NCBI RefSeq assembly: GCF_943369875.1
Contig: NZ_CALROT020000004.1
Span: 101,765-165,764 of the forward strand
Length of the DNA: 64,000 nucleotides
From: Vulcanococcus limneticus LL
Lineage (GTDB): Bacteria; Cyanobacteriota; Cyanobacteriia; PCC-6307; Cyanobiaceae
Direction of reading: 5' to 3'
A model generated the notes under the pieces. That model had not been told where the DNA came from and searched no databases. It saw only the letters and a list, made by a program, of their open reading frames with translations. Positions 15,675 through 45,877 of this stretch are shown piece by piece. Each line of letters begins with the position of its first letter. Within the stretch, counting starts at the first letter, position 1. The translations under genes and the position numbers were made by a program.

Positions 15675-15921
15675 GTCTCCACTGCCTTTAAAGGGAGCTT
15701 AGGTCAGCAGCTTGCGGGGCCTACCCGGGCGGAAGGGTGGCGGACCCAGAGGCTGCGCGAGGTCGAGTCCAACGGCCGCGGAACAGCTCCGGCAGGAGCG
15801 ACCGGCTGCCAGACAGCAGGTCAGGACCTGTAGAAGGAGGCATTCAGCAAAGCCCCGGGTCAGCCCAGCGCCTGCCCGAACAGCCGCCGCACCCCTCCGC
15901 CCCCCGCCACGCTCCACCGCC

Positions 15922-28611: not shown

Positions 28612-29913
28612 GTGATGGGGACGGGGCGGGAGCTGGGGCTGCAGGTGAGGGGCTGGCTGGAGGCTGGCGTGCTCGATCTCGACAACCGCACCGCCCTGGC
28701 GAACCGGCTGATCGATGGGCTCGGGGCCGAGGTGTGGCTGAGCGGGCCGGTGCGGGATCTGGCGGCCCAGCCGCTGCTGCGCCAGGTGCTGCGGCAGCAG
28801 GGCGGGGCCCAGCGCTCGGCCCTGGAGAGCCTGCGGCAGCAGCTGGAGCGCACCTATGCGCCGAGGGTGCTGGCAGAGCTGCTGGAGCTGCTGGAGGCGG
28901 CCAGCGGCCTGCCGGTCGGCCTGCCCGCACCCGACGCGCCACCGACGGGTCGCGCCCAGGGAGCCCAGGGCCTGGCGCTTCCTGTCGGTGGCCCGAGCAG
29001 CCCGAACGGTCTCCACGGAGCAGCGGCCGAGGCCACAGGTCTGGAGCTGGCGGTGGCGGAGCCACCCCTGGATGGGTCCCTGGCGGTGGCCGGACCGCGC
29101 GGGGGCCTGGGGGCACCACGCCCAGCCGCCCTCACGGGGCCTGCAGGCCTCAGCGCCCTCGCCCAGCAGCTGCGGCCGCTGGGGCCGGGCCTGGCCCTGG
29201 CCTTCGCCCTGGCCCTGGTGTGGTGGTGGGCGGCACTGGAACTCGACCGGCGCCTGTTCGATGGCTGGGGCTGGAGCGGGGGCGTGGTGCTGGCCGTGCT
29301 GCTCGCTCTGCTGCAGGCCCTGGCCCTGGGGCCCCTCAAGACGGCCCGGCGCCAGTGGCCCCTGGAGCAGGCCGATGCCACCAATCCCCACGGGGCCTGG
29401 CGCTGGCTCACGGCCCCCTGGATCCACCACGACCAGCGCGAGGCGGCGGTGAATCTGCTGATGCTGCTGGTGCTGCTGGGGCCCTCGCCGCTGCCCCTGG
29501 CCGATGTGGTGCTGCGCTACGCCCTCACCAGCCTGGCCACCGTGGCCCTGGCCCTGCTGGTGGCCCAGCGCCGCACCCCCGAGGGGCGCTGGGACGGGGC
29601 CTCCGGGGCGATCAGTGCCCTGGTGGGCCTGGGCACGGCCGCCAGCCTGCTGCACTGGCGCGCCCTGGATTTCCCCCTGGGCCGCCTGGGTTTCGGCATT
29701 CCGGCCTGGGTGCTGCTGGTGCTCTACGGCGCCCTGCAGCTGGCCTGGGTGCTGCCGCGCCGCAGCGCCCAGGACGACAGCCGGCCGCTTGATCGATTGC
29801 TCAGCAGCCAGTGGTGGTGGGGCCTGGTGCTGGGGATCGGCTGGGCCCTGGTGAGCCGAGCCGGCGAGCTGCTTCAGGCGGCGGCGCGGGCCCGGGCCAC
29901 GGCCGCCATGTAG
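28612..29913 (+). CDS. Fusion of the island N-terminal helical domain with a rhomboid-like membrane domain (probably catalytically incomplete)
   Basis: AWRWLTAPWIH...N (WR loop / TM2), WDGASGA (GxSG); no His in the last TM; N-terminus aligns with the 38027 and 40334 products. Confidence 0.7.
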   Translation: MMGTGRELGLQVRGWLEAGVLDLDNRTALANRLIDGLGAEVWLSGPVRDLAAQPLLRQVLRQQGGAQRSALESLRQQLERTYAPRVLAELLELLEAASGLPVGLPAPDAPPTGRAQGAQGLALPVGGPSSPNGLHGAAAEATGLELAVAEPPLDGSLAVAGPRGGLGAPRPAALTGPAGLSALAQQLRPLGPGLALAFALALVWWWAALELDRRLFDGWGWSGGVVLAVLLALLQALALGPLKTARRQWPLEQADATNPHGAWRWLTAPWIHHDQREAAVNLLMLLVLLGPSPLPLADVVLRYALTSLATVALALLVAQRRTPEGRWDGASGAISALVGLGTAASLLHWRALDFPLGRLGFGIPAWVLLVLYGALQLAWVLPRRSAQDDSRPLDRLLSSQWWWGLVLGIGWALVSRAGELLQAAARARATAAM

Positions 29914-32279
29914 CGGCCCCAGAGCTCAGCCACCAACGCCCCGCTGGCAGCCTCGGCCGGGCGGTTGTCGTCGTTGCCCATCCAGATCGCCGAAAGCAGA
30001 TCCAGCGAGGGGGAGTAACCAATGAACAGCACATCGACACCGTTGTTGGTGGTTCCGGTCTTGCCGCGGCCATCAGCGACCACAGCGGCAGCGCGCCCGG
30101 TACCGCGTTGCACCACGGCAGCCAGCAACCGATCCATATCGGCGGCGATCTCGGGCTTGATCAACTGGCGCGCCTGCTCACCGATCGGCACCGTGACGCT
30201 GCCGGATGGGCAATCGCTGAGGCGACGGATCGAGGAGCACATGCCCAGATCCACGATTCGCTTCACGCCATGCAGCGGCACGGATCGTCCGCCGTTGGCA
30301 ACCACGGCATAGGCACGGGCCATCTCATACAGCAGCGTTTCACGACCACCGAGCATCGTGTTGTAATCAGCATCCAGAGGATTGCTGATACCAAGGTCCC
30401 GTGCCCGTTTGACAACCTGAGCAAGGCCAGCCCGCTCCCCGAGCCGCAAGGCCACAACGTTTTCCGACAAGGCAAAGCCGTCAATTACCGTAGCCAAACC
30501 ACCCGAAGAACCAGCTCCATGACTGCAACCAGCCACATAACTCAGCGGCGCACAGGAGATTGAATCTCCCACCTTCACGCCAGCCTCAAGGGCGGCGATG
30601 AAGGGAAACAATTTAAAGGTAGAACCAGGCTGACGCAAAGCCTGGACCCGGTCAAAACTTGATCGACCGTAATCCCCCCCACCCACATAAGCGAGGATTT
30701 CTCCGGTACTGGGTCTGACACTGATCAGAGCCCCCTGCGCAAGACCGACACCTGCAGCCTGGCCATCCAGAAACCTACGCAGCTGCTGCTGAGCAAGAGC
30801 TTGCAAAGCGGGGTCAATAGTACTCTCAACGTAGTAGTTCCCACCCGAATCTTCATTCAAATTCAGGCCAAACCTTACACCCTCCAATTCGCTGATCACA
30901 TAATCACTGAAATAGGGATAAGCCTTGGTTGCGCTTTCCCGACAAGAGGAGGAATCGATGTTCAAAGGCTTGCGCTTGGCATCCGCCAGCACTTGGTCGG
31001 CCTGGGGGCCGTAGCCCAGAAAACCCTGTTCATGCATCAACTGCAGGACCAGGTTGCGACGGTGCACCGGCAACCATTCACCGTCCCGCAGAGCTTTCAC
31101 CCTCTGCCGATCGCCCTCACTCAGATTTCCCTTGCCCTGTTGACGCAGGCGCTCCTCCAACGCAGCGGCTTCTTGCCATGGTTGCGGCGCATAACAAGGG
31201 CTATAGCCATTGGGACTCGGCAGCAACCCCACCAGAAATGCCGACTGAGCCAGATCCAGCTGACTGGCCGAACGCCGGAAGTAGATCTGAGCGGCCTGCT
31301 CAAAACCATCAGTACCGAGACCGAGATGAGCCCGGTCCAGATACATCTTCAGGATCTGATTCTTGCTATATCCAACCTCAAGCTGCAACGCCACCCACAG
31401 CTCCCGCAGTTTGCGGGTGAGGCTGTAGTCCCGACCAACATCGGCATAGTAGAGACGCGCCACCTGCTGGGTGAGACCACTACCGCCGCCGCTGCCCAGC
31501 AATGCCGATCGGAACGTGCCGAACAGGTCAAGGCCACTGTTCCAACCGAAGCGTGCCTCCTCCGAGGCAATCAACGCCTGACGAAGATGCAGCGGATAGC
31601 TGGCCAGGGATGGCAGGGCCGTTGCCGAACCCTGCTTGGCATCCACCTGACTGCCATCGCTGGCAAAGATCTTCACCGGCCCGGCGATGGAGCGGATCTT
31701 CGAGCCGCCTGCCACCGTGGCCGCCGCCAGCATGCCGCTCACCAGGAGTGCCGAGCTCACCAGGCTGCCGATCCCAAGCCAGTGAATCGCCTGCTCAAGC
31801 GCACTGCGGGGATGGTGGTAGCGCAGGACGGGTGCATCACCCTTCAGCGGAGAGCCCAGCCAAACCGCATCGCCATCTCGCAGGCTGATCGCCTTGATGC
31901 GCCGGTCGCGGTGGAACAGACCGTTGGCGGAGTTGAAATCCTCCAGGGTGAAGTCGCGGTCACTCGCGCGGGCACGCTCGAGGATCGCGTGCACGCGACT
32001 CACGCCCGCCACATCCACCGGAAGCTCCGTGCCTGGATCGCGGCCGATGCGCACGCGCCCCGCACCCAGCACCAGGCGGCTGATCCGCTGCTGCCCCTGC
32101 CAGAGCTCAGCAACAGCCTGACGCTGGCGGAGATCATGCCAGGCCTGGAAGAGCGCACCACGCCTGCCAGCGCCGGCCAGGCTGCCGCGGCCACGCACAG
32201 CCGCAAGCAACTGGCGCCAGGCTTGGCGGCGACCCATGGGGGGGGCGGAAGTCTCCTGCTCCACCGTGGTCTGCTCCAT
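29874..32279 (-). CDS. FHA-domain bifunctional class A penicillin-binding protein (transglycosylase + transpeptidase)
   Basis: FHA IGRD...VSRVHA...NSANG; one TM; GT51 SEEARF, GGSGLTQQV, RKLRE, KNQILKMYL; transpeptidase RQPGSTFK (SxxK), SEN, KTG. Confidence 0.9.
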   Translation of the reverse strand: MEQTTVEQETSAPPMGRRQAWRQLLAAVRGRGSLAGAGRRGALFQAWHDLRQRQAVAELWQGQQRISRLVLGAGRVRIGRDPGTELPVDVAGVSRVHAILERARASDRDFTLEDFNSANGLFHRDRRIKAISLRDGDAVWLGSPLKGDAPVLRYHHPRSALEQAIHWLGIGSLVSSALLVSGMLAAATVAGGSKIRSIAGPVKIFASDGSQVDAKQGSATALPSLASYPLHLRQALIASEEARFGWNSGLDLFGTFRSALLGSGGGSGLTQQVARLYYADVGRDYSLTRKLRELWVALQLEVGYSKNQILKMYLDRAHLGLGTDGFEQAAQIYFRRSASQLDLAQSAFLVGLLPSPNGYSPCYAPQPWQEAAALEERLRQQGKGNLSEGDRQRVKALRDGEWLPVHRRNLVLQLMHEQGFLGYGPQADQVLADAKRKPLNIDSSSCRESATKAYPYFSDYVISELEGVRFGLNLNEDSGGNYYVESTIDPALQALAQQQLRRFLDGQAAGVGLAQGALISVRPSTGEILAYVGGGDYGRSSFDRVQALRQPGSTFKLFPFIAALEAGVKVGDSISCAPLSYVAGCSHGAGSSGGLATVIDGFALSENVVALRLGERAGLAQVVKRARDLGISNPLDADYNTMLGGRETLLYEMARAYAVVANGGRSVPLHGVKRIVDLGMCSSIRRLSDCPSGSVTVPIGEQARQLIKPEIAADMDRLLAAVVQRGTGRAAAVVADGRGKTGTTNNGVDVLFIGYSPSLDLLSAIWMGNDDNRPAEAASGALVAELWGRYMAAVARARAAA

Positions 32280-32335
32280 CACCACCACCACCGATCTGCA
32301 GAGTCATAGGGTAGGCAAAGCACCCCTCTGCGCCG

Positions 32336-32611
32336 TTGCCGCGTCACCATGACCCCTGGGAGTCGTTTCGCCTCTGGCTGGCTTTAACGCTTGCCCTGTA
32401 CGCCATCAGGGCGATCTTCGCAGCCCGGTTGCCCGGAGCCATTCCCGGCTGGATTCTGCTGCTGATGGTTCTGGTGAGTGTTGTGATGGCGGCGAAGGCC
32501 CTGCTGTTCCCCGGCAGGGTCATCCCCTACCGAGAGGGCGACGGCGGCTGGTGGACCGACGTGAGCGACGACTGGCGCCTGTGGTGGCAACGCCGGCGGC
32601 AGGGGCGATGA
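32336..32611 (+). CDS. Small two-TM hypothetical protein
   Basis: TTG start; two hydrophobic helices; Trp/Arg-rich tail; stop overlaps the next ATG (ATGA). Confidence 0.6.
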   Translation: MPRHHDPWESFRLWLALTLALYAIRAIFAARLPGAIPGWILLLMVLVSVVMAAKALLFPGRVIPYREGDGGWWTDVSDDWRLWWQRRRQGR

Positions 32612-33372
32612 GCACCACGGCCCAACTGCACCTGCGCGACACCCCCAGCAAGCGGCTGGCGCTGCAGAGCGGCCAACCGCTGACCATCGGCAGCGCCAGC
32701 AACAACCGCCTGGCCCTGGTGAGCCAGCCGGGTGTATCCCCTCACCATGCGGTGGTGCGTTACACCGCCAGCAACGGCTGGGTGGTGTGCGACTGGCAGA
32801 GCAGCGATGGCACCTATCTGGAGGGGGAGCGAATCCGACGCTGCCGCCCCCTGAGCGATGGGGATGAGATCCGTCTGGGGCGGGATGGACCGGTGCTGGT
32901 GTTCAACCTGGAGACGCCCGCTCCGACGGAGGCCCCAGCGTCCAAGGCCCCCGCCCATGCGGCATCGGCGCAAGCCGCACCGAGCCCTGGCACGCGAACA
33001 CCACAGGGGACCAGTGCTGCGCCACGAACGCCGCCGCCTCGCACGATCGACATCGACGGCACCACCGTGCCCGTGAACCAGATCCGATCGGCGGTGGTGC
33101 TCAGCGAACCCCTCTACCCGAAGATCTTCAGCTGGTGGGTGCTCGCCTGCCTGGGTGGCCTGCTGCTGCTGCCCTTCCCGCTGCTGTTCTGGCCATTGGA
33201 GCTGGCGGCTCTGTGCGGCTGGATTGTGCTGGGCTCCCGCAAGAGCCACACCCTGTTGATCGTCCAGCACGACGGCCAGGCGCAGCGACGTGCCTTTGCC
33301 AACCGGGTGACCGCTCTCTCACACCGGAACGGCATCCGCAAGGCCATCGGTCAGAGTCTCGAGAACCCCTGA
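32608..33372 (+). CDS. FHA-like domain protein with a C-terminal two-TM hairpin domain
   Basis: LTIGS...VSPHHAVV...SSDGTYLEG...LSDGDEIRLG; Pro/Ala linker; beta-TM-TM-beta tail reminiscent of DUF6232 (low confidence). Confidence 0.8.
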   Translation: MSTTAQLHLRDTPSKRLALQSGQPLTIGSASNNRLALVSQPGVSPHHAVVRYTASNGWVVCDWQSSDGTYLEGERIRRCRPLSDGDEIRLGRDGPVLVFNLETPAPTEAPASKAPAHAASAQAAPSPGTRTPQGTSAAPRTPPPRTIDIDGTTVPVNQIRSAVVLSEPLYPKIFSWWVLACLGGLLLLPFPLLFWPLELAALCGWIVLGSRKSHTLLIVQHDGQAQRRAFANRVTALSHRNGIRKAIGQSLENP

Positions 33373-33379
33373 GGACCCC

Positions 33380-34732
33380 GTGACCTGGATACTGCCGGAA
33401 GGCGCCTGGATGCAATTCGAAGGCCTGAGCAGCCCCGTCCAGGTGTTGCGAGGCCTGGGCGGGGGCACCCAGGGGCAGGTGTTTGAGGTGGCGGTGGGCG
33501 GCGAGCGTCTGGCGCTCAAGTGGTATCTGCCCAGCTGCCTGGAGAGAGATCCGCACCTGGAACGGAGGCTGCTGGAGAGCATCCGCGCCACCGCACCCAG
33601 TCGTGCCTTCCTCTGGCCGATCACGCTGCTGCGCCCCTCCGCCTCCAGCCTGCCGTTGATCCGTAGCAAGAATCCCGGCTTCGGCTATCTGATGGAGCTG
33701 CGGCCGCCTCAGTTCGTCGGCGCGGTGGAGCACTACGGCGGTCGGCTCGAGATCAGTCTGCGCCAGGCCCTCAGGGCCAGCTTTTTCCTGGCCGAGGCCT
33801 TTCACGCGCTGCACAGCAAAGGCCTTTGTTACAAGGACATCTCTCTTGGCAATCTGTTCCTGGAGGCGGCAACGGGTCGCATCCTGATCTGCGATAACGA
33901 CAACGTGGATGTGGATGGCCGCGACCTCGGCAGCGTGCTCGGCACCCCGGGATTCATGGCTCCCGAAATCCTGATGAGACGGGGCAGACCCGGTGCCAAC
34001 AGCGATCTCTTCTCGATCGCCGTACTGCTGTTCATGCTGCTGACCCGACACCATCCACTCCGCGGACAGATGGAGCTGGCCATTCGCTGCCTGGATGAAC
34101 CGGCGCGCCGCAAGCTCTACGGGGAGGATCCGGTGTTCATCTTCGACCCACAGGACTGCCGAAACCGGCCCGATCCAACGGAGCACGCTGCCGCTCTGCT
34201 GCTCTGGCCGATCTATCCGATACCCCTTCAGGAGCTGTTCATTCAATCCTTCTGCACAGGCATGCATGCCCCCAGCCAACGGGCCCTCACCGGGCAGTGG
34301 ATGGAGAAGCTGGCCGCCGTGCTCGACCAGCGCCAGACCTGTCCCGCCTGCGGCTCGGAGCACTTCAGTTCCCAGACCACCTGTTGGTATTGCGCCGAGC
34401 CCCTGGGCATCGCTGCGGCGTTGCGCATGGCCAACGGTCGGGTGATGGCCTGCACCGATAACGAGCTACATGCCCACCACTTCAACAGCCTGGAGGCACC
34501 GCGCCTCGATGAGCCGATCGCGCGCGTGGTGGCCCACCCCAGCGACCCCAGGCTGCTTGGACTGCGAAACCTGAGCGATCAGCCCTGGCGGGCCACGGCT
34601 GCGGGGGGCCAGCAGCATGCCGTTGCCCCAGGCAAAACATGTAATCTCGCAGCGCTTCTCCAGCTCGACACACCCTGGGGTGCGGTGCGCCTGGAGCCCG
34701 CCAGAAGCGAGCACCTCAGCACGCGATCCTGA
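33380..34732 (+). CDS. Soluble Ser/Thr protein kinase of the YegI / TerY-P type with a Cys4 zinc ribbon
   Basis: LGGGTQGQV, LALKWY, CYKDISLGN, ICDNDN in place of DFG, GTPGFMAPE, SDLFS; CPACG...CWYC. Confidence 0.92.
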   Translation: MTWILPEGAWMQFEGLSSPVQVLRGLGGGTQGQVFEVAVGGERLALKWYLPSCLERDPHLERRLLESIRATAPSRAFLWPITLLRPSASSLPLIRSKNPGFGYLMELRPPQFVGAVEHYGGRLEISLRQALRASFFLAEAFHALHSKGLCYKDISLGNLFLEAATGRILICDNDNVDVDGRDLGSVLGTPGFMAPEILMRRGRPGANSDLFSIAVLLFMLLTRHHPLRGQMELAIRCLDEPARRKLYGEDPVFIFDPQDCRNRPDPTEHAAALLLWPIYPIPLQELFIQSFCTGMHAPSQRALTGQWMEKLAAVLDQRQTCPACGSEHFSSQTTCWYCAEPLGIAAALRMANGRVMACTDNELHAHHFNSLEAPRLDEPIARVVAHPSDPRLLGLRNLSDQPWRATAAGGQQHAVAPGKTCNLAALLQLDTPWGAVRLEPARSEHLSTRS

Positions 34733-35466
34733 TGCCCGGCTTTCCAAACGTTCGTCTGGCCAACCGGCCGCTGCATTTCTTCTATCTGTGCGATTGCTCC
34801 GGCTCGATGGCCGCCCAGGGCAAGATGCAGTCGCTCAACCAGGCGATTCGGCAGTCGCTGCCGGGCATGGCCAACGTTGCCCGCGACAACCCGGAGGCCC
34901 GGGTGCTGGTAAGGGCTGTGGCCTTCTCCGATCAGGCCAGCTGGCATATCGCTGAGCCCACCTCGGTGGAGACACTGCAGTGGCGTGACCTTGAGGCCGG
35001 AGGGGTGACCGCCATGGGCGACGCCCTGAGGCTGGTGGCCGAGCAGCTGCACACCCCACCGATGGAGGAGCGAGCGCTTCCCCCCGTGCTGGTGCTGATC
35101 TCCGATGGCCAGCCCACCGACGATTTTGAAGCCGGCCTCGAACGGCTGATGCGCGAACCCTGGGCTCAGAAGGCCGTGCGCCTGGCAATCGCCCTCGGCC
35201 ACGATGCCGATCTGGAGGTGCTGCAGCAGTTCATCGGGCCCGCACCCGCCAACCAGCGCGAGCGTTCCCCGCGCAGGCCGCTGCAGGCCAGCAACGCAAC
35301 CTCCCTGGCCCAGTACATCCAATGGGCCTCGACGGCGGTGGTCGGAGCGGCCTCGATGCCCGTGAGCCGGATGGCTGACTCCCAGGACACCGGCAGTACC
35401 CCTCTGCCGGATCTGCCTCCCACCGAAATGGATCCGATCGGCGACGTTGGCCCCATGGTCTGGTGA
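34732..35466 (+). CDS. terY: TerY-like von Willebrand factor A domain protein
   Basis: RPLHFFYLCDCSGSM (MIDAS DxSxS), GGVTAMGDAL, VLISDGQPTDD; lies between a kinase and a PP2C. Confidence 0.85.
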   Translation: MPGFPNVRLANRPLHFFYLCDCSGSMAAQGKMQSLNQAIRQSLPGMANVARDNPEARVLVRAVAFSDQASWHIAEPTSVETLQWRDLEAGGVTAMGDALRLVAEQLHTPPMEERALPPVLVLISDGQPTDDFEAGLERLMREPWAQKAVRLAIALGHDADLEVLQQFIGPAPANQRERSPRRPLQASNATSLAQYIQWASTAVVGAASMPVSRMADSQDTGSTPLPDLPPTEMDPIGDVGPMVW

Positions 35467-36980
35467 CTGAGGTGTCTGGGTCCTGGAGCTGGTCCGCACC
35501 GCTGCATCGCAGCCGCTGCGGCGCCTCCCATCAACGCCGTGGGGTGCCCTGCCAGGACGCCTCCTCGTGCGCCAGTCTGCGCAGTGCCGATGGACTGCCG
35601 GTGGGCCTGATGGCCGTGGCCGACGGCCACGGCGGCAGCCGCTACTGGCTCAGTGATGTGGGAAGCCGGCTGGCTTGCGACCTGGCCCTGCAGCTGGCCG
35701 CCAAGGATCTGGCCAGGCGTCCTCTGAGCACCCCTGGAGCGGATGCGCTCGGGGCTGTTCGGCAGTGGCTGGCAGATGAGCTGCCCTCTCAGCTGGTAGC
35801 GGCCTGGCAAGAAGCCATCCAGGCCGACTGGCAACAACGGGACCTGCCGCCGGAGCATCAGGGCGAGTCGTTCTCCGCCCAGACCTACGGCAGCACCCTG
35901 GCCCTGGTGGTGCTGACTCCCCACTGGTGGGCCCACACCGGGCTGGGCGACTGGGATCTGGTGCTGCTGAGCGACCATCAGCCCGATCAGCTCATCAGCC
36001 AGGAGGCCGACAAAGGCCACCAGGGTGAGGCCACGGAGAGCCTCTGCCTGCCGAGCGCCAGCCGCTGCTTTGCCTCCCGCACCGCCGTGTACCCCCTCAG
36101 CGGCGACCAGCGCCAGGCCTGCGGGCTGGTGCTCAGCACCGATGGCATCCGCAAATCCTGCGCCACCGACGCCGACCACCTGGCTCTGAGCCGCTACCTG
36201 CTGGAGGAAGCCCAGACGCACAAGGCCATCGCTGCGGGCAGCTCGGAGCGGCTGGACACCAGCCTTGATCGCATCAGCCGCGAGGGCAGTGGCGACGACG
36301 TCAGCGTGGCCCTGGCCTGCTTCGGGAGCCTGCAGCCCGGGGCGGTGCCATCGCAACCGGTGCCAATGGCGGCTTTGCCCGATCTGACGCCGCTACCACG
36401 GCTGCCGGAACATCCCAGACTTGCGGCGGAGCAGCCGAGTCCCCAATCCAGACGGGGGCGACGGCAAGCCAGACCAACAGCAGGCCCAGCTCTCCTGCGA
36501 ATTGGCGTGGGACTCGCGACGGGCAGCGCCCTGCTTGTAGCTGCCTGGGTTTGGTTGAGACCGGCACTCTTGCGGCCCTTCTCCACGCCAACCACGTTCG
36601 CCGAGCCCAGCCAGGACATCCCGGCGCGACTGACGGCCACTCAGCAAAACAGCATTCAGCTGGAAATCAAAAGGCTCTGCAGGATGGAGCAGGCCCTGAT
36701 CGAATCCACACTGAACCAACGCAAGGAAATTCCCAAGCACAGCCGTGAGCAACCCAGACACATCGAACGACTCCTGGCCGACAACGATTGGCAGGGCAGC
36801 TTGATTGCCCTCAACCGCCCAGGCAGCACACAGCAAACGCAACTTGCAGCCTTGTGCCCTGCTCTCAACAAAGCATTGAAAGCCTACTGGGCAAAACACA
36901 TTCAGCCTCAGCAGGGCAGAGAGTTCAGTAAGCAAGCCGCACCCACAGACGACCAGCCCACCGTCTCAACAGATCCATGA
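35463..36980 (+). CDS. YegK-like PP2C-family phosphatase with a TM helix and a C-terminal extracytoplasmic domain
   Basis: GASHQRRGVPCQDA, AVADGHGG, GLGD, LSTDG, SGDDVSV; TM LRIGVGLATGSALLVAAWVWL; GTGA overlap with the vWA gene. Confidence 0.88.
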   Translation: MTEVSGSWSWSAPLHRSRCGASHQRRGVPCQDASSCASLRSADGLPVGLMAVADGHGGSRYWLSDVGSRLACDLALQLAAKDLARRPLSTPGADALGAVRQWLADELPSQLVAAWQEAIQADWQQRDLPPEHQGESFSAQTYGSTLALVVLTPHWWAHTGLGDWDLVLLSDHQPDQLISQEADKGHQGEATESLCLPSASRCFASRTAVYPLSGDQRQACGLVLSTDGIRKSCATDADHLALSRYLLEEAQTHKAIAAGSSERLDTSLDRISREGSGDDVSVALACFGSLQPGAVPSQPVPMAALPDLTPLPRLPEHPRLAAEQPSPQSRRGRRQARPTAGPALLRIGVGLATGSALLVAAWVWLRPALLRPFSTPTTFAEPSQDIPARLTATQQNSIQLEIKRLCRMEQALIESTLNQRKEIPKHSREQPRHIERLLADNDWQGSLIALNRPGSTQQTQLAALCPALNKALKAYWAKHIQPQQGREFSKQAAPTDDQPTVSTDP

Positions 36981-37045
36981 ATCCAACCTGCTCCGCCTCC
37001 ATTCAGCCTCCTCAATCCCCACGCGAGCACGGCGGCCAGTTATGA
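36977..37045 (+). CDS. 22-aa bridging mini-ORF (MNPTCSASIQPPQSPREHGGQL)
   Basis: ATG overlaps the PP2C stop (ATGA) and its TGA overlaps the next ATG (ATGA); may be coincidental. Confidence 0.3.
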   Translation: MNPTCSASIQPPQSPREHGGQL

Positions 37046-37986
37046 CGGACTACGCACTGGGCAGCGCGATCCGAGCAGCCCTGGATCAACCCGGATCATC
37101 AGGCTCCCGAAGCGTTGAGTCTCGCCTGCCGCAGCTGGTGGCTGCCGATCAGCAGGATCTGCTGCCGGCCCTCAGCTTCCTGCTGCGCTCGCGCGCCATG
37201 GCCAGCGCCCTGGCCCAGCCCAGCGGCCGTGATGACGGCCGCATCGCCGCCCGACTACTGGCGGAGGTGGAAGCCCAGTACAGCCCGGCCATCTGCCAGA
37301 GGCTCCAGGGGGTGATCCAAGGGATGGTCGGGATGCCCGAGCGACAGGCGCCGCACCCCAGCCCCGCCTGGAGCCCGGTGCCACCGGCTCAGGCGGTGGT
37401 CAACCAGCCGGCGGTCACCACCCTGGTGACCACGAGCAGCAGCGGCAGCAGCTGGGTGGTGGCTCTGCTCTGCTTCCTGATCGGCATCGTGGGGAGCGGG
37501 CTGCTGTTGTTGCTCTGGCAGCAGCAGCAGCAGCAGGGCAAACAAGCCGTCAATGTCAGCGCGACGCCCCCCGCACCGACGAACCCACCGGAGCCGCAGC
37601 CGTCCAGCCCAGTGGCACCGGCTAGTGAACCAAGCGCCGCACCGGCCGGCACCGCAGCGATCGATGCCGCCGTGGCCAGCATTCAGGAGCTCTATGCCGC
37701 CCTCTCCGCCAAGGATTATGCAAGCGCCTCCAACCACTACGGCGGCCAGGCCGCCGATCAGTTTGATCCCACCTTCTTCAACCAATTCGAACGGGTGACC
37801 GTGGCGGATCTCCGCCAGACCAGCAGCGCCGGCTCAACGATGAATTTCGAAGGCGTGGTGACCTTTGTCTATCCGAATGGCGATGTTCAGACCGAATCCC
37901 GTAGCTTCACGATGGATACCCGCACCACGCCCGTGCTGATCACCAGCAGCGAATTCGGACGGGTGCTTCAGCCCCGCCGTGGCTAA
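37042..37986 (+). CDS. Island paralogue P1: N-terminal helical domain, TM, Pro linker, NTF2/SnoaL-like extracytoplasmic domain
   Basis: DYALG...YSPAICQRL; TM WVVALLCFLIGIVGSGLLLLLW; C-terminal IQELYAALSAKDY...QFDPTFFNQFERV...ESRSF. Confidence 0.8.
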   Translation: MTDYALGSAIRAALDQPGSSGSRSVESRLPQLVAADQQDLLPALSFLLRSRAMASALAQPSGRDDGRIAARLLAEVEAQYSPAICQRLQGVIQGMVGMPERQAPHPSPAWSPVPPAQAVVNQPAVTTLVTTSSSGSSWVVALLCFLIGIVGSGLLLLLWQQQQQQGKQAVNVSATPPAPTNPPEPQPSSPVAPASEPSAAPAGTAAIDAAVASIQELYAALSAKDYASASNHYGGQAADQFDPTFFNQFERVTVADLRQTSSAGSTMNFEGVVTFVYPNGDVQTESRSFTMDTRTTPVLITSSEFGRVLQPRRG

Positions 37987-38026
37987 TTAGCCGGCCGGTA
38001 GGCTCAACGCACTCACAGCTGCGCCC

Positions 38027-38986
38027 TTGGCTTCAACCTCTGACCACGCGCTGGGGCAACGACTGGCCCAGCTGATCCAGCAGAGCGGAGACTCAGCCTT
38101 TGAAGGCGGTGTGCTCAGCCGCCGGTTGCAGGCTCAGCTCCAGGATCTGCTCGGTGCCGAGACCTCGCTGCTCAACCCGCTCCGGGATCTGCTGCAGCGA
38201 CCCAGCTTCCGGCAGCTCTTCAGCCTGGGCAGCCAGGGACAGCTCCTCCATGCTCGCGACGCCCTGCTGCGGGATCTGGCTGACGTCTACAGCCCAACAG
38301 TGCTGAACAGGCTGGATGCGGTGCTGCAGGGGTGCCTCAACCTGCACGGGGCCGCTGCCGCCACCTGGCCGGCAGCGGCTCCCCCATCCACCGTCAGGAG
38401 CGCAGCACCAGCCGGCCCGTCAGCCTCCTGGTCATCAGCACCCAGCAGCCAACCCCCTCCTGTCGCCTCCGCGCCCCCCACGGTGGTGACCATCCCCACC
38501 CATGCGCAGGGGCCGACGTCCATCCTGATCGCGCTGCTGGCCCTGATCTGCGGCGCGCTGGTGATGGCCCTGGCGGGGGTGCTGATCGGCAACCGCAGCA
38601 CCAACGGCACCACCAGCCCACCGGCCGCCACGAAGCCGAGCAGCCCTCCAGCACCGACTGCTCCCCTCATCCAACCGGCACCCGAACCGCCGCGGTCAGA
38701 GCCGGAGGCCGCAACGGCCGGCCAGTGGCAGGCTTGCGTGGATTACGGCGGCAACGATGGTCCACCTCCCCAGCCCGGCCAAACATGGTGGCCGGTGGTG
38801 GGCCCCGGCGAAGCCCTCGAAGCCTCCCGCCTGCATTGCCGCGGCGACGCCTTCACCAATGCCAACGGCAATGCGCAGGTCGCCAGCTTTCGCGATCGCG
38901 ATACAGCAGCAGCCTTCGCCCAGCAGCTCACCGAAGACAGCAGTCATCCCTACAGCTTCTGGGTTGGCGACCCCACGCAGCGCTGA
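38027..38986 (+). CDS. Island paralogue P2: N-terminal helical domain, TM, SPOR-like C-terminal domain
   Basis: DHALG...YSPTVLNRL; TM ILIALLALICGALVMALAGVLI; QVASFRDRDTAAAFAQQL resembles the SPOR beta-alpha unit. Confidence 0.75.
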   Translation: MASTSDHALGQRLAQLIQQSGDSAFEGGVLSRRLQAQLQDLLGAETSLLNPLRDLLQRPSFRQLFSLGSQGQLLHARDALLRDLADVYSPTVLNRLDAVLQGCLNLHGAAAATWPAAAPPSTVRSAAPAGPSASWSSAPSSQPPPVASAPPTVVTIPTHAQGPTSILIALLALICGALVMALAGVLIGNRSTNGTTSPPAATKPSSPPAPTAPLIQPAPEPPRSEPEAATAGQWQACVDYGGNDGPPPQPGQTWWPVVGPGEALEASRLHCRGDAFTNANGNAQVASFRDRDTAAAFAQQLTEDSSHPYSFWVGDPTQR

Positions 38987-40171
38987 TCAGGCGCAGCTGC
39001 GCCGCACCTGCGTATAGACCTGCTCAAACCGATCCCACCGGAAGCTGCGGGGGTCGTAGCGACTGCGGCTGCGATCCACCGCGGCATGCGTCGTGATCCG
39101 CTCCAAGGGGATCCCATAGAGAGCCTGCCAGCGCAAGATCTGTTCAGCCAAGGCTCGGTATTGCGCTTCGGTGTATCCCGAGTGCCCGCCCTGATCGCCA
39201 CGGCCATCCTCAGGACTCTCCAGGCTGACATGCAAAGCAATGTTGTTGATGGATGGTGGATTGTTTGCCGAAGTCTTGAAGCTGAGATCCCCAAAAGCAG
39301 AATCGCCAGCGCCATAGGCACGGGCCTGGTCGGGCACGATGCGCACTCTCTCTCCATCACGCCCGATCAACACGTGATAACTGCCCTGGGCCGAATCATT
39401 GGCCTGATCACGCTGGAAGAGCTCAACCGTTGAGGGCAGATCCAGAACCGTTTCATGCAACACGATCAGTGCAGGTTCTGCCGGGATGGCAGCACCGCTG
39501 GCGTCCTGCGTCTGCCGTTTGCCAAAGTTGCTGGCCGCCGCCAGCCGCTGGGTCTCCTGCTGGGGTGACCCCAGACGGGCGCAACGGTCCAGGCCATCCA
39601 CCGCCACGGGCGTGGCTGGCGCGCGCAACGATGAACCTGCGGTGCCCGTGGCCGGAGAACCTGCCGGCGCAAGGGCCGGATCGATCGCTGGGAGGGGTGG
39701 TGCCGCCACTCGAAACGCGGTCAGTCCCAGCCAACTGAGGCCCGCGCCGATGGCCACACCCACGCCCAGCCCCAGCAGCCAGCTGCGTAGATCGGGCTCC
39801 TGCCGATCTGCGGACAGCCCCGAGGCAGGAGCTGAATCCCCACCCTCCTGCCAGCCCTCCAGCAAGCCATCGAGGAAGGCCTGCTGCGGCGACACGCTGT
39901 CGGCCGGAAGGCTCCGACCAGCGCCATCCAGCAGCTCCTTCAGGGCCTGAGCACGGGCGCCATCCTGATCCGAAGCCAGCAGGGTGACGCAGGCCGGGTG
40001 GCGCAGCAGGGTGATCAGGCATTCCCGCAGCTGAGGCTGATCAGCCAGCAAGTGCTGCAACGCATGGGCGATGGCAGCCGGTACCTCCTCCGACGCCAGT
40101 CCACGCCTGCGCGCCGATAACACCAGGCCTCGAGCCAGGGAGAAGAGATCGGAGGCCTGCTGAGAGCGCAT
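38987..40171 (-). CDS. Membrane-anchored N-acetylmuramoyl-L-alanine amidase (Amidase_2) with a diverged island N-terminal domain
   Basis: IVLHET, GSYHVLIGRDG, SLES, YTEAQYRAL, ITTH...YDP Zn-ligand pattern; TM WLLGLGVGVAIGAGLSWLGL. Confidence 0.88.
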   Translation of the reverse strand: MRSQQASDLFSLARGLVLSARRRGLASEEVPAAIAHALQHLLADQPQLRECLITLLRHPACVTLLASDQDGARAQALKELLDGAGRSLPADSVSPQQAFLDGLLEGWQEGGDSAPASGLSADRQEPDLRSWLLGLGVGVAIGAGLSWLGLTAFRVAAPPLPAIDPALAPAGSPATGTAGSSLRAPATPVAVDGLDRCARLGSPQQETQRLAAASNFGKRQTQDASGAAIPAEPALIVLHETVLDLPSTVELFQRDQANDSAQGSYHVLIGRDGERVRIVPDQARAYGAGDSAFGDLSFKTSANNPPSINNIALHVSLESPEDGRGDQGGHSGYTEAQYRALAEQILRWQALYGIPLERITTHAAVDRSRSRYDPRSFRWDRFEQVYTQVRRSCA

Positions 40172-40305
40172 CAGGAGTCAGCCTGGTGAAACGGGAGAGA
40201 GGAACCAAGGCGCCGCCCCGGAGCAGCACAGGCCACCCAGGAGCGCGCATAGGGCAGCGCCCAGAAGTACTGCGGAGCTGCTCAGCCCCAGGTTCACGCC
40301 GATCC

Positions 40306-40311
40306 TATACT
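40306..40311 (+). promoter_or_regulatory. Possible -10 element for P3
   Basis: TATACT in an AT-rich spacer 23 bp before the TTG at 40334. Confidence 0.35.
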
Positions 40312-40333
40312 GATAACAGCGACAAAAAAGTCC

Positions 40334-41353
40334 TTGACAGGCAGCCCTGACTATCAACTTGGCAAGAGAATTGCACAGTTTCTCAATCAGAATGGCAGCA
40401 ACAACAATCCCGACAGCCGACTGATCAACAGCCTGCCAGACCTGATGGGGAGTGATCCATCTCTACTCCCACCCTTACGGGACATGATTCTGCGTCCCAG
40501 CTTGCGCAGGCTGCTGCACGAGAGCCAACCATCCCTCCTGCGGAGTGGACGCGACAGCCTGATTGCAGATCTGCAATTTACCTACAGCAGCACCATCATC
40601 TTTCGACTGCAACGTGTGCTGAGTGGCATCCTCAACCTGCCGGATATCGACGAACCGCGCACTCACGGACAGTGGGTCGATAACCCGCCCCCCCACTCAC
40701 AGGATTGGCCGCCCTCCAGCCACAGCGTTTCAGCACAACCCACCCCCAGCACCACAGTCACCTACGCCATTCAGACGCCATCCCAGGGCCAAAGCGGGCT
40801 GACTGCCGCGATGATCGCCCTGTTGGCCCTCATCTGTGGGGGAGGGCTCGTGGGCTTGATCTGGCTGCTGACCGGCCAATCCCCGCCGACACGCCAGGAT
40901 TCGCCTTCAACAACCCAGGCTCCGACCACGCCCTCACCAGCTGCCCCCGCACCACGTCAGCTGCAGGAGCCCACCCCTGCCCCCTCCAATCCCTGGGGGC
41001 CACCAGAGGAGTACAAATTCGGCCAGGGCCCCAGCCAGACCTATCCAGACACCTGTGCCTTCTCCAAGACGGACGCCCGTGGCGAACGGACGCTGGAGGA
41101 TAAATCACAACTGGAATTCTGGGCTTGCCGTGATGAAGGCGGCGACACCAATACCGGTTATGCCGTGATCTGGGGTGACGGCAAACGCACGGTCTACCGC
41201 TTCATGAACGGCGGGACTGGCGTGGTACAGGGAACCAACGGCCAGGATGTACCGATGTCTTGGCGCAACGACACCCACAACGGCCAGAAGATCATCGCCA
41301 TCAGCCATCAGGACGGGGCAAACTCCTGGATTCCTGGCCATGTGGACGACTGA
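40334..41353 (+). CDS. Island paralogue P3: N-terminal helical domain, TM, unknown beta-rich extracytoplasmic domain
   Basis: DYQLG...YSSTIIFRL; TM MIALLALICGGGLVGLIWLL; C-terminal domain with two Cys and alternating beta-strand patterns. Confidence 0.75.
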   Translation: MTGSPDYQLGKRIAQFLNQNGSNNNPDSRLINSLPDLMGSDPSLLPPLRDMILRPSLRRLLHESQPSLLRSGRDSLIADLQFTYSSTIIFRLQRVLSGILNLPDIDEPRTHGQWVDNPPPHSQDWPPSSHSVSAQPTPSTTVTYAIQTPSQGQSGLTAAMIALLALICGGGLVGLIWLLTGQSPPTRQDSPSTTQAPTTPSPAAPAPRQLQEPTPAPSNPWGPPEEYKFGQGPSQTYPDTCAFSKTDARGERTLEDKSQLEFWACRDEGGDTNTGYAVIWGDGKRTVYRFMNGGTGVVQGTNGQDVPMSWRNDTHNGQKIIAISHQDGANSWIPGHVDD

Positions 41354-41362
41354 ACGCGAGCC

Positions 41363-42513
41363 ATGAACGACCATCAGCTTCGCGTCCTGCTGCGAGAGCG
41401 GATCATGGCCGACCTGCAGAGCGGCATTCCGTGCGAGGGCCAGCACCTGCAGCTGTTGATGGGCGACCCTGCGGCGAGCTTCAGATGCCCCTGCTGCCAG
41501 CCCTGCGCTATCTGGTGAGGAGCCCGGCGTTCAGCAACGCCGTGGAGCAGAGGCCAGCGCTGACCGGGGAAACCCGCCTGCACCTACTGCACGAGGAACT
41601 TGAGAAGGCGTTCACCGTTGCGATCTGCCGACGCATGACGGCGGTGCTGCGGGACCTGCTCGGGCTGCCCGCAGGGGAGATCGCAGCGTTGGGCAAGGCC
41701 AGCGCACCGCCCACCACCCCTGGGCCACAGCCGATGCCAAGGCCTCCGCAACCGCTGCACCGACCGCTGCGGTCCATCGCCGGGCAGTCAAGCCAGTCGA
41801 CGTGAGCGATCCCACAGGGGGGTGAACTGCCCGCGGGCTGGCCGATCGAGGAGTTGATCCGGGAGCAGCCCGGCTGCGGGCGCGCCGCCGCAGGCGGCAG
41901 GCGATCTGTGGCGGTGGTGCTCAGCTTCATGGCCGAGGTGCTGGTGGTGGGCGTCCTGGGAGCGCTGGGCTGGATGGCACAGATCAGCCGTCAACCACTG
42001 CAGCCCCTTCACAGCAGCCAAGGCACCAGCCAGCAGCCGCTGGAAACCGAAGCAGCTCCACTCCAACCACAGGAGCCCGCGGCCAGCCCGCCTTCCCCGG
42101 CACCTGATCTGGGCACACAGGAGGCCAACCCTGACCAGGCGATCACCAGGGCTCAAAAGCTCTATGCCGAGCTCTCGAGCGGCAAGATGGATGCCGTGCG
42201 CCAACTGTTCAGCCCCGCCAGCCTCAGGCAGCGCCAGAGCCAGATCACCGGGCTGGCCACGGGTCAGCTCCAGGCCCGCCAGCTCCAGCGCAACGCCGCC
42301 ACCGATCCGCTCGGGGCCCTGCTCGGCACGGCCTTCCTGGCCCGGGAGCCGCAGCAGACGCCCCGGCCGCTCCGCGCCCTGGGGGCCAGCCCGGAGCTGG
42401 AGGCGGCCCTGGCCGCGACCTGGCCGGCCGGACCGGCGGACAGGAGGATGGGACCACGGCCCGCCCAGGCCGGCCCCACCGGCTCCAGCCGGCCCACGGC
42501 CCCACCGCCATGA
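41363..42513 (+). pseudogene. Island paralogue P4: frameshifted, interrupted and chimeric
   Basis: MNDHQL...MGD then a frameshift near 41468 into ELQMPLLPALRYLV; in-frame TGA at 41803-41805; TM RSVAVVLSF; NTF2-like domain breaks off at FSPA (~42219) and continues into unrelated high-GC sequence. Confidence 0.75.
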
Positions 42514-43556
42514 ACGACTACCAGCTCGGCGCGGCCCTGCGCGCCCAGGTGATCCAGGACCGCCAGCGCGGCCTGCCCGTGGAGGGGCGGCGGCTGCAGG
42601 CGCTGGTGGGCGATCTGGGCGGCGCCGAGCAGGCCGGCCTGCTGCCGGCCCTGCGTTACCTGGTGTTCTGCCCCGCCTTCCACAGCGCGGCGAGCCAGGC
42701 CGAGCCCCTGGCGGATCCGCGGCTGCTGACGCGGCTGATGCAGGAGCTGCAGGAGGTGTTCACCCCCGCCATCTGCCAGCGGATGCAGCGGGTGGTCGAG
42801 GGGCTGCTGGGCCTGCCCGCCACACCGGTCGCGGGTGCAGCCGCGGCTGTCGCCGCCGCACCGGTGCCGGCCCCCGTGCCGGAGCCAGTCGGTCTGGTGG
42901 CGATGCCCGTGCCGCTCGACGATCCGCGCCCGCCCACGTCGGAGCAGGCCCTGGCGCTGCTGGCCGCGAACCGCAGCGGCGCCGGCGGCGGCGGCAGCCG
43001 CTCCCTGGTGGTGGTGCTCTCCTTCCTCTGTGGCGGCCTGCTGGTGGGGCTGCTGGGCCTGCTGGTGTTCCTGCAGATGGCCGGCCGCCGCCAGCCCCAG
43101 CTCGGCACCAGCGAGGCCCGCCCGCCCGTACCTGTGGCCCAGCCGGTGACACCGCCGGCGACCCCGACCCTGCCGGAACCCGAGCCCGGCCCGCCCACCA
43201 GCGACGAGGCGGCCAGCAGCGAGGCCGCCAACCTGAATCAGGCCATCTCCCGGGTGCAGGAGCTCTACGGGGCCCTCTCCAGCAAGAACTACGACGCCGC
43301 CCGCGGCTTCTTCGCCGGAGCCGCCGCCGACCAGTTCGATCCCACCTTCTTCAACCAGTTCGAGCGGGTGAGCGTCGCCGAGCTGCGGGAGAGCGGCCGC
43401 AGCGGCAGCACCCTCACCCTGGAGGGCCAGGTGACCTTCACCTATCCGGATGGCACCAGCCAGCTGGAGAGCCGCAGCTTCACCGTCGACACGGCCACAA
43501 CCCCGGCGGTGATCACGGACAGTGCCTTCGGCCAGGTGCTCAAGGGGCGCCAGTGA
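42510..43556 (+). CDS. Island paralogue P5: N-terminal helical domain, TM, NTF2/SnoaL-like domain (host-like codon usage)
   Basis: DYQLG...FTPAICQRM; TM LVVVLSFLCGGLLVGLLGLLVFL; QFDPTFFNQFERV identical to P1. Confidence 0.82.
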   Translation: MNDYQLGAALRAQVIQDRQRGLPVEGRRLQALVGDLGGAEQAGLLPALRYLVFCPAFHSAASQAEPLADPRLLTRLMQELQEVFTPAICQRMQRVVEGLLGLPATPVAGAAAAVAAAPVPAPVPEPVGLVAMPVPLDDPRPPTSEQALALLAANRSGAGGGGSRSLVVVLSFLCGGLLVGLLGLLVFLQMAGRRQPQLGTSEARPPVPVAQPVTPPATPTLPEPEPGPPTSDEAASSEAANLNQAISRVQELYGALSSKNYDAARGFFAGAAADQFDPTFFNQFERVSVAELRESGRSGSTLTLEGQVTFTYPDGTSQLESRSFTVDTATTPAVITDSAFGQVLKGRQ

Positions 43557-45789: not shown

Positions 45790-45877
45790 CGCCGGATCCA
45801 CGCGGGGCGTGGAGCGTCTGGGGCCGAAGGCCTGGGTGGACGCTATGCAGCCCGCGGGGCCGGCGCAATGGGCCGGC

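Follow-up and report, generated by a model that had tools for sequence, protein, structure and literature searches.

We analysed a window of 64,000 nucleotides (nt) from Vulcanococcus limneticus LL (contig NZ_CALROT020000004.1, positions 101,765 to 165,764), in which a class A penicillin-binding protein (PBP) that carries a forkhead-associated (FHA) domain is encoded beside a divergently oriented Ser/Thr kinase operon. The window has a GC content of 66-78%. Housekeeping genes lie to the left of the PBP gene (iPGM, msrB, amt, groEL-groES, atpB-atpE and a rhomboid gene), and to its right, across a spacer of only 56 bp, the operon runs on the forward (+) strand (Table 1). It encodes a small membrane protein, a second FHA protein, and a kinase, a von Willebrand factor A (vWA) protein and a PP2C phosphatase, the last three of which we refer to as the triad. 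An earlier prediction made from the letters of the sequence had placed the PBP gene divergent from a kinase operon, which is what we find, with the triad genes spanning 33380-36980 on the + strand and the PBP gene on the opposite (-) strand. Its picture of kinase and PBP as direct neighbours needs amendment, since the kinase operon is there but two conserved genes between the PBP and the kinase, those for the small protein with two transmembrane (TM) segments and for the second FHA protein, had been overlooked.

The FHA domain of the PBP gives a full-length match to PF00498 (model positions 1-67 of 67; 45 bits against a cut-off of 20.7; E=1.4e-11), and the catalytic domains match the Pfam models Transgly, for glycosyltransferase family 51 (GT51; E=1.9e-38), and Transpeptidase (E=4e-22). 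The top NCBIfam model for the whole protein is the PBP_1a (PBP1A) family, and a Kyte-Doolittle scan finds a sole hydrophobic segment. Because there is a single TM segment and the catalytic domains of class A PBPs have an obligatory place in the periplasm, the FHA domain would be cytoplasmic and the GT51 and transpeptidase domains periplasmic. The residues expected to contact phosphothreonine are present as G79-R80 (RIGRD), S94 and H97 (VSRVH) and N119-G120 (SANG). In GT51, E240 (SEEARF) is the catalytic Glu of the E-[D/E] motif and E293 the second Glu, accompanied by the motifs GGSGLTQQ, RKLRE, KNQILKMYLD and RRNLVL, while the transpeptidase has STFK (S553, K556), SEN (S605, N607) and KTG (740-742).

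For conservation we used tblastn pseudo-alignments of the PBP to 80 orthologous loci from species-representative genomes, all belonging to the Cyanobium/Vulcanococcus/Synechococcus-5.2 group, with 61-81% PBP protein identity. Each of the residues G79, R80, S94, H97, N119, G120, E240, E293, S553, K556, S605, N607 and K740-T-G is found in 80/80 loci; residue 241, the variable position of the E-[D/E] motif, is E in 56/80 and D in 24/80. Mean identity to the window PBP is 71% for the FHA domain, 74% for the transpeptidase and 82% for GT51, so that by this measure the constraint on the FHA domain is similar to that on the two catalytic domains. We conclude that the window encodes a bitopic class A PBP, predicted to be catalytically intact, whose cytoplasmic N-terminus of ~165 residues is a canonical FHA domain and a putative phosphothreonine reader. 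The protein features given in the original prediction are thereby borne out, namely an FHA domain with the contact residues G-R, S-x-x-H and N-G, one TM helix, a GT51 domain with its catalytic Glu in SEEARF, and a transpeptidase with SxxK, SxN and KTG. Between the GT51 and transpeptidase domains, residues ~364-407 (…PQPWQEAAALEERLRQQGKGNLSEGDRQRVKALRDGEWLP…) form an insertion of ~30-45 residues that occurs in a subset of the orthologues only and is probably a helical surface elaboration.

Table 1. Features of the FHA-PBP locus, with positions in the window
Feature	Position	Strand	Evidence or remark
FHA-class A PBP gene, 801 aa	29874..32279	-	Open reading frame, Pfam, NCBIfam, hydrophobicity scan
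FHA domain of PBP (residues 76-142)	31854..32054	-	Pfam
TM segment of PBP (residues 167-192)	31704..31781	-	Kyte-Doolittle scan
GT51 domain of PBP (residues 219-371)	31167..31625	-	Pfam Transgly
Transpeptidase domain of PBP (residues 520-784)	29928..30722	-	Pfam
Near-palindromic heptamer	32307..32313		TAGGGTA on +, TACCCTA on -; inside the 56-bp divergent spacer
Small 2-TM protein, 91 aa, TTG start, first gene of the operon	32336..32611	+	In 77/77 loci, mean identity 67%
Second FHA protein, 273 aa	32551..33372	+	Pfam FHA, E=5.4e-15
Non-canonical Hanks-type Ser/Thr kinase, 450 aa	33380..34732	+	Pfam Pkinase, E=2e-14
vWA protein, 244 aa, MIDAS D-C-S-G-S intact	34732..35466	+	Pfam VWA, E=5.6e-7
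PP2C phosphatase, 505 aa	35463..36980	+	Pfam PP2C_2, E=1.4e-25
Variable tail of the exchanged block, single-pass membrane proteins	37042..42200		Domain scan and block boundaries
Tail member	37042..37986	+	Six-helix module
Tail member	38027..38986	+	Six-helix module
Tail member, Amidase_2 protein	38987..40171	-	Six-helix module
Tail member	40334..41353	+	Six-helix module
Membrane protein	28612..29913	+	Six-helix module
Membrane protein	~42510..43556	+	Six-helix module

Linkage across the clade and exchange of a 12-kb block

Each of the 80 loci was searched for the window genes, and linkage counts use only those loci with enough upstream sequence. Divergent from the PBP gene across a short spacer, the small TM protein is encoded in 77/77 loci, the second FHA protein in 72/72, the kinase in 68/68 and the full triad of kinase, vWA and PP2C in 59/59. 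The downstream rhomboid/atpEB context is missing in 14 of 69 loci, and in the L020 group both flanks differ from the common context, yet the PBP and the operon are found together. The association of PBP and operon therefore exceeds general synteny, and the two form one inherited unit in the Cyanobium/Vulcanococcus/Synechococcus-5.2 picocyanobacteria. A number of metagenome-assembled genome (MAG) records that contain picocyanobacterial atpBE, groESL and PBP genes bear unrelated titles such as 'uncultured Klebsiella sp.', 'Asaia bogorensis', 'Bradyrhizobium ivorense' and 'Bordetella parapertussis'; these records, which include L001, L026, L028, L050, L051, L068, L074, L076, L078 and L080, look wrongly labelled.

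The nearest relatives of the window are Synechococcus sp. GreenBA-s (L032) and Vulcanococcus limneticus LL (L061), with flanking DNA that is ~94-96% and ~90% identical to the window, respectively. The drop to ~70% identity with both coincides with the PBP stop codon (~29.9 kb), and the higher level is regained at ~42.2 kb; within this block (~29900-42200) the DNA is 67-83% identical to theirs or unalignable. Compared with L032, protein identity is 67% for the PBP, 66% for the kinase, 75% for the vWA protein and 45% for PP2C, against 95-100% for the flank proteins atpB, groEL and rhomboid. The block has a GC content of 62-66% versus 72-75% for the same genes in L032 (62% versus 72% for the PBP gene itself), and the right flank is at ~75%. 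The drop in identity together with the lower GC content indicates that a unit of ~12.3 kb was replaced as a whole, with the PBP gene, the operon and a further ~5 kb of envelope genes in it. This looks like a recombinational cassette replacement, the donor of which was apparently a lower-GC relative of the L001-L003 type.

Between the divergent genes, the heptamer of Table 1 belongs to a family with the consensus TAGC[C/G]T[A/G] in the direction of the PBP gene, of which the window copy is a variant. It is present in 73/78 loci, in most of them 21-27 nt from the projected start of the small 2-TM protein (orf32336), against a background of ~0.01 per 100 nt. The heptamer is a candidate for a -10 element shared by both divergent transcription units. 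A scan of 29.6-37.3 kb with the sigma-70 consensus returned 0 promoters, and terminators were fewer than expected by chance. The PBP start codon is the ATG at 32279, with in-frame GTG codons reaching up to 32291; another ATG further upstream, within the conserved intergenic motif, was discarded as a start, since in the window its reading frame is a different one.

The envelope genes at the far end of the block encode single-pass membrane proteins with a common cytoplasmic N-terminal module of ~105 aa and differing periplasmic C-termini. The same module (19-38% identity) occurs in six membrane proteins of the window, single-pass or polytopic, comprising a rhomboid, an Amidase_2/AmpD-like protein and four unknowns (Table 1). 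It is modelled as a six-helix bundle (pLDDT 83), for which we found no significant match in PDB (all E>3) and no Pfam or NCBIfam family. The copy number of proteins with this module varies between relatives, and the module could serve as a shared adaptor between these envelope enzymes and one and the same system in the cytoplasm.

Proteins of the divergent operon

The 91-aa protein encoded by the first gene has no family match in Pfam, NCBIfam or PADLOC. The second FHA protein consists of a cytoplasmic FHA domain (residues 45-110), a Pro/Thr/Ala-rich linker, a hydrophobic hairpin (~191-229) and a conserved C-terminal tail; its best NCBIfam model is FhaB/FipA-like (E=1.4e-10), and the TagH FHA model also matches (E=4e-7). 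Because the listed open reading frame overlaps orf32336 by ~60 nt, its true start is probably further downstream.

The kinase has GxGxxG, the catalytic Lys in LALK, YKDxSLGN (Y-K-D...N in place of H-R-D...N), DND in place of DFG, and GT189PGFMAPE, motifs that are conserved across the loci. Its zinc ribbon is formed by C321-x2-C324...C335-x2-C338, the four Cys of which show no variation among 32 aligned kinases and are kept in at least 90% of 72 loci. An AlphaFold2 model (pLDDT 83.5, pTM 0.86) comprises the kinase domain, the ribbon and a confident all-beta C-terminal domain at ~345-440, which may have an FHA-like, an OB or another fold. The vWA protein is the most conserved of the operon, with a mean identity of 80% over 66 loci, and its C-terminal tail (224-244) is almost invariant as LPDLPPT231-x-x-DP-x-x-D-x-GP-x-VW. 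The T231-x-x-D of this tail resembles the classical FHA ligand motif pT-x-x-D and is a candidate docking site. PP2C has a catalytic domain at ~1-290 with conserved VADGHG, DWDL, DG and GSGDDV motifs, a TM segment at 343-365 and a variable extracytoplasmic C-terminus with a mean identity of only 35% across loci. Given these proteins, the functional unit is likely a multi-protein membrane complex rather than a simple pair of kinase and PBP.

A vWA protein, a PP2C and a Ser/Thr kinase with a C-terminal zinc ribbon make up the TerY-P triad of Anantharaman, Iyer and Aravind 2012, as summarised in PMC11090510. All three protein types are adjacent in the window, the vWA with its MIDAS, and in 59/59 loci.

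FHA-PBPs elsewhere and the proposed phospho-control

A library of representatives at 50% identity was searched with the FHA-TM-GT51 part of the PBP only. The whole clade forms one cluster in this library, and it is followed by ~12 distant representatives at 35-43% identity in which the FHA region is covered; Pfam confirmed FHA, GT51 and transpeptidase domains in 9 of the 10 tested. They include members from Pseudanabaenaceae, 'Oscillatoriales SM2_1_8', UBA8156 and Synechococcaceae/Cyanobium MAGs, which agrees with the statement in the original prediction that FHA-PBP fusions are annotated in some other cyanobacteria. Most of the distant FHA domains keep G-R, S-x-x-H and N-G, with the Arg of Gly-Arg missing in P0146, P0139 and P0140. 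The P0123 type is a large separate family with 1341 matches, all of the same architecture. In Cyanobium sp. N.Huapi 1H5 a P0123-type paralog and a window-type gene (L056) occur in one genome. This paralog (L090, JAGQBH010000002.1, 10001-12187) is ~37-43% identical to the window PBP and lies in a bioY-lspA-PBP-GTPase (MMR_HSR1+DUF697) context that is also found in L082 and L086. The same cyanobacteria thus own two FHA-class A PBPs, only one of which is tied to the triad. A DUF697 GTPase is encoded in the window as well (48195-49661), where it does not adjoin the PBP.

The fusion of FHA domain and PBP is old and already annotated in databases, whereas an invariant tie to the triad is a feature of a single paralog in a single clade. 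Our literature search found nothing on an FHA-class A PBP fusion or on a grouping of kinase, vWA, PP2C and FHA-PBP, and the co-transferred pairing of one FHA-PBP paralog with the triad, the second FHA protein and the small membrane protein appears to be undescribed.

On balance, we think it probable that the neighbouring kinase/phosphatase switch exerts phospho-control over the window PBP through docking of its FHA domain. The proposal starts from what is shown for the locus: how its genes are arranged, that the domains are intact and their key residues conserved, and that the linkage is invariant and the genes were transferred together. At the inner side of the membrane, the kinase would phosphorylate its own threonines or those of partner proteins. 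Candidate sites are T189 (activation/P+1 loop of the kinase), T231 (T-x-x-D tail of vWA) and T254 (tail of the second FHA protein). The PBP and the second FHA protein would dock on such phosphothreonines with their FHA domains, and the polymerase may in this way be recruited into or released from a membrane complex, which would set where or how actively peptidoglycan is polymerised. The membrane-anchored PP2C would reset the switch, and its variable outer domain could sense the state of the envelope. Which protein phosphorylates which, what the FHA domain binds and how PBP activity responds are the parts of this scheme that we infer. Coupling to the kinase is supported because the operon is FHA-centred, having a second FHA membrane protein, and because its PP2C is anchored in the membrane. 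The non-canonical DND of the kinase has its parallel in the active YegI of E. coli, and the proposed scheme follows a logic known from wall synthesis in Actinobacteria and from the Pseudomonas aeruginosa type VI secretion system (see below).

Several observations weigh against this proposal. No gene for a kinase, vWA or PP2C lies within 10 kb of the FHA-PBP in five of the six distant lineages sampled, nor of the lspA-linked paralog. The P0140 lineage, apparently non-cyanobacterial, has its FHA-PBP between two ordinary Hanks kinases, one with an FHA domain of its own, an arrangement that is not a TerY-P triad. An FHA-PBP therefore needs no adjacent kinase, and other kinases could supply the phosphothreonine ligand. 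The neighbourhood check suggested in the original prediction accordingly came out divided, with the kinase in 68/68 and the triad in 59/59 of the orthologous loci, but with the paralog and five of the six distant lineages unlinked. Gene order is also generally conserved in the clade, so part of the linkage signal is plain synteny. The candidate sites T189, T231 and T254 were picked by conservation only, and the window sequence was found only in DNA runs (lake metagenomes) and in none with transcripts. Finally, the second FHA protein of the window has S48 in place of the canonical FHA Arg, whereas of 77 relatives 67 have R at this position, 7 have K, 3 have Q and none has S. This Ser could represent a real loss of phosphothreonine binding in the lineage, or a single-base variant or error (CGC/AGC).

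A different account of the same locus would have PBP and triad as conserved neighbours without direct coupling, in which a housekeeping FHA-PBP reads the phosphothreonines of other kinases or binds its partner constitutively, the triad regulates something else, and the adjacency reflects synteny and a shared promoter region. Apart from the paralog and the distant FHA-PBPs, most of which work without an adjacent kinase, it can call on the rhomboid, atpEB and groESL flanks, which are also syntenic in most loci, and on a plasmid-borne triad of Methylomonas (see below) with Sel1, Tim44-like and Clp-N partners and no PBP. It does not readily explain why the link is kept in 59/59 loci while the downstream flank differs in 14/69 and both flanks differ in the L020 group, nor why the recombination block has its edge precisely at the stop codon of the PBP gene and takes in the operon, and the operon's own FHA membrane protein clearly marks a phosphothreonine/FHA system at the membrane. 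We regard this account as unlikely, although it is one to be taken seriously. In a phospho-independent reading, the FHA domain would be a constitutive interaction module, like some FHA-like domains of secretion systems (YscD type), and would tether the PBP to a cytoplasmic partner whatever the activity of the kinase. The PBP does give a sub-threshold Pfam match to Yop-YscD_cpl (30.1 bits against a cut-off of 33.2), and the Arg of Gly-Arg is lost in P0146, P0139 and P0140 and is Ser in the second FHA protein of the window. The six phosphothreonine-contact residues are nevertheless present in 80/80 window-type PBPs, which is hard to explain without phosphopeptide binding and makes such a scaffold very improbable.

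The triad could instead be a conflict or defence module, an anti-phage or envelope-stress switch with the FHA-PBP as its sensor or effector that, for example, halts or re-routes wall synthesis on infection. PMC11090510, citing Gao et al. 2020 and Anantharaman et al. 2012, describes triads of the TerY-P-like kind that work against phage on their own and that occur alongside restriction systems. A role in defence would explain the exchange of the block between lineages beside variable envelope proteins: the block is far more divergent from L032 than its flanks, a variable family of membrane proteins that includes an amidase adjoins the triad, and a close relative of the triad is plasmid-borne. 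Unlike typical defence islands, however, the module is missing from none of the orthologous loci examined and mostly occupies the same site of the core genome, and the PBP keeps all its catalytic residues and looks like a working synthase. A PADLOC scan of the window genes gave generic kinase matches, TerY at E=0.003 and none for PP2C, with no convincing defence system among them. Membership in a defence system was rejected on these grounds, the module being in all orthologous loci and neither patchy nor island-like, and we consider a defence role improbable.

Descriptions of class A PBP control usually place it outside the membrane or with partners in the cytoskeleton. A synthase with a phosphothreonine reader of its own, locked to a dedicated kinase/phosphatase operon, would be a direct line of control over wall growth from cytoplasm to periplasm, and the locus occurs in an abundant group of freshwater phototrophs. 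To our knowledge, the enzymatic activities of the TerY-P triad and of the related YegI/PphC/YegL triad of Escherichia coli are known but their substrates and purpose are not, and the window PBP is a concrete candidate output for triads of this kind. Because the locus is carried by cultured strains, namely Synechococcus sp. WH 5701, Cyanobium gracile and Vulcanococcus limneticus, the hypothesis is directly testable. More tentatively, and as a reading that we hold less likely than not, we suggest a wider picture in which a switch of the TerY-P/YegI type is hard-wired through FHA docking to a peptidoglycan polymerase, and in which synthase, switch and the envelope enzymes with the six-helix adaptor constitute an exchangeable 12-kb wall-control cassette, swapped between lineages possibly under phage or grazing pressure on the envelope. 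If this picture holds, the widespread kinase-vWA-PP2C triad would have its first defined target, and class A PBPs would be regulated in a way that is both new and direct.

Comparison with known systems

The label of a TerY-P triad, which the original prediction gave to the three genes, fits their architecture of vWA, PP2C and zinc-ribbon kinase, but ter genes are absent and similarity to TerY is weak. The vWA protein matches the PADLOC TerY model at only E=0.003 and is 27.5% identical (E=2e-7) to proteins named 'TerY-C metal binding domain'. The genomic setting differs as well: the window neighbours are PBP, FHA, envelope and housekeeping genes, with no ter, DNA-processing or restriction genes there, and the triad belongs to a clade-wide core-genome locus coupled to two FHA membrane proteins and the PBP. 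A Mo-nitro_C protein encoded 8 kb from the triad (45091-45942, - strand) has a weak TerB-domain match (E=1e-5) that is probably coincidental. In a plasmid collection, the vWA is ~35% identical to vWA proteins on >2000 enterobacterial plasmids, the range being 27-35% when the TerY-C proteins are included. The possibility that these plasmid genes belong to ter operons was rejected, as the inspected example is a set of vWA, hypothetical protein and AAA ATPase.

A closer relative is found on an unannotated plasmid of Methylomonas sp. AM2-LC (CP157007.1, L092, 8581-11484), where kinase (39% identity), vWA (58%) and PP2C (28%) are encoded in the same order. The Methylomonas kinase has the same zinc ribbon and C-terminal domain as that of the window, so that the all-beta region (~345-440) after the ribbon is kept there too. 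The genes after its triad encode Sel1-repeat, Tim44-like, Clp-N and ClpX-zinc-finger proteins, and neither an FHA protein nor a PBP is among the neighbours. Because its partners are different, the triad may be viewed as a portable cassette that combines with different partners.

In E. coli K-12, the kinase gene yegI, the PP2C gene pphC (PphC/YegK) and the vWA gene yegL lie together, and IMG gives the window kinase a family COG name that covers YegI. Direct similarity of the window proteins to this triad is marginal in tblastn (vWA E=6e-5, PP2C E=0.006, none for the kinase). The Methylomonas proteins match at E=2e-10 (kinase to YegI), E=8e-8 (PP2C to PphC) and E=4e-4 (vWA). Direct homology of the window kinase to YegI was rejected, the tblastn search having given no match and only a transitive link through the Methylomonas triad, and the window triad as a whole appears to be distantly related to YegI/PphC/YegL. 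Both loci have the same three protein types in one operon and D-x-D in place of DFG in the kinase, and the E. coli locus differs in having neither an FHA protein nor a PBP. YegI is an active kinase with D-S-D in place of D-F-G and no H-R-D, PphC dephosphorylates it, and no substrates of YegI are known (bioRxiv 10.1101/819920, 10.1101/303594). The D-N-D and Y-K-D of the window kinase are therefore no argument against its activity. The E. coli Hsp70-family gene yegD adjoins yegI, and an Hsp70/MreB-like open reading frame lies 16 kb from the triad in the window (15703-17487, + strand), which is probably coincidental.

In the H1 type VI secretion system of Pseudomonas aeruginosa, the kinase-vWA protein PpkA, the PP2C PppA and Fha1 switch a membrane-embedded machine by threonine phosphorylation. 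The window locus has the same four kinds of component, namely kinase, vWA domain, PP2C and FHA protein. The P. aeruginosa pathway differs in that the vWA domain is periplasmic and fused to the kinase (PpkA consisting of kinase and vWA; PMC1262709), and in that its output is a secretion system and not a peptidoglycan synthase.

Ordinary class A PBPs (PBP1a/PBP1b; PDB 3udf, 5fgz) share with the window protein the GT51 and transpeptidase domains, the catalytic motifs and the N-terminal anchor. The solved PBP1a/1b structures align with it only from residue ~194, and none has an FHA domain. Regulation of such PBPs comes from lipoproteins of the outer membrane or from partners in the cytoskeleton and does not involve a phosphopeptide reader fused to the enzyme.

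In Actinobacteria, control of peptidoglycan synthesis by PknA/B, PstP and FhaA/FhaB, which act on RodA/PbpA and other wall enzymes, is well documented, and the genes form the cluster fhaA-fhaB/fipA-pstP-rodA-pbpA-pknA-pknB. As in the window, a Ser/Thr kinase, a PP2C and two FHA proteins are found beside a peptidoglycan synthase, with FHA reading phosphothreonine at the cytoplasmic face, and the second FHA protein of the window is closest to the FhaB/FipA model. In contrast to the actinobacterial cluster, the window has an FHA domain fused to the synthase itself, which is a class A PBP and not a pair of SEDS protein and class B PBP; its kinase has a zinc ribbon and neither PASTA domains nor an extracellular sensor; and a vWA protein is added. 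The two systems are analogous, not orthologous. The FHA-PBP architecture itself is not new, and its pairing with the triad would be a variant of Ser/Thr-kinase control of wall synthesis.

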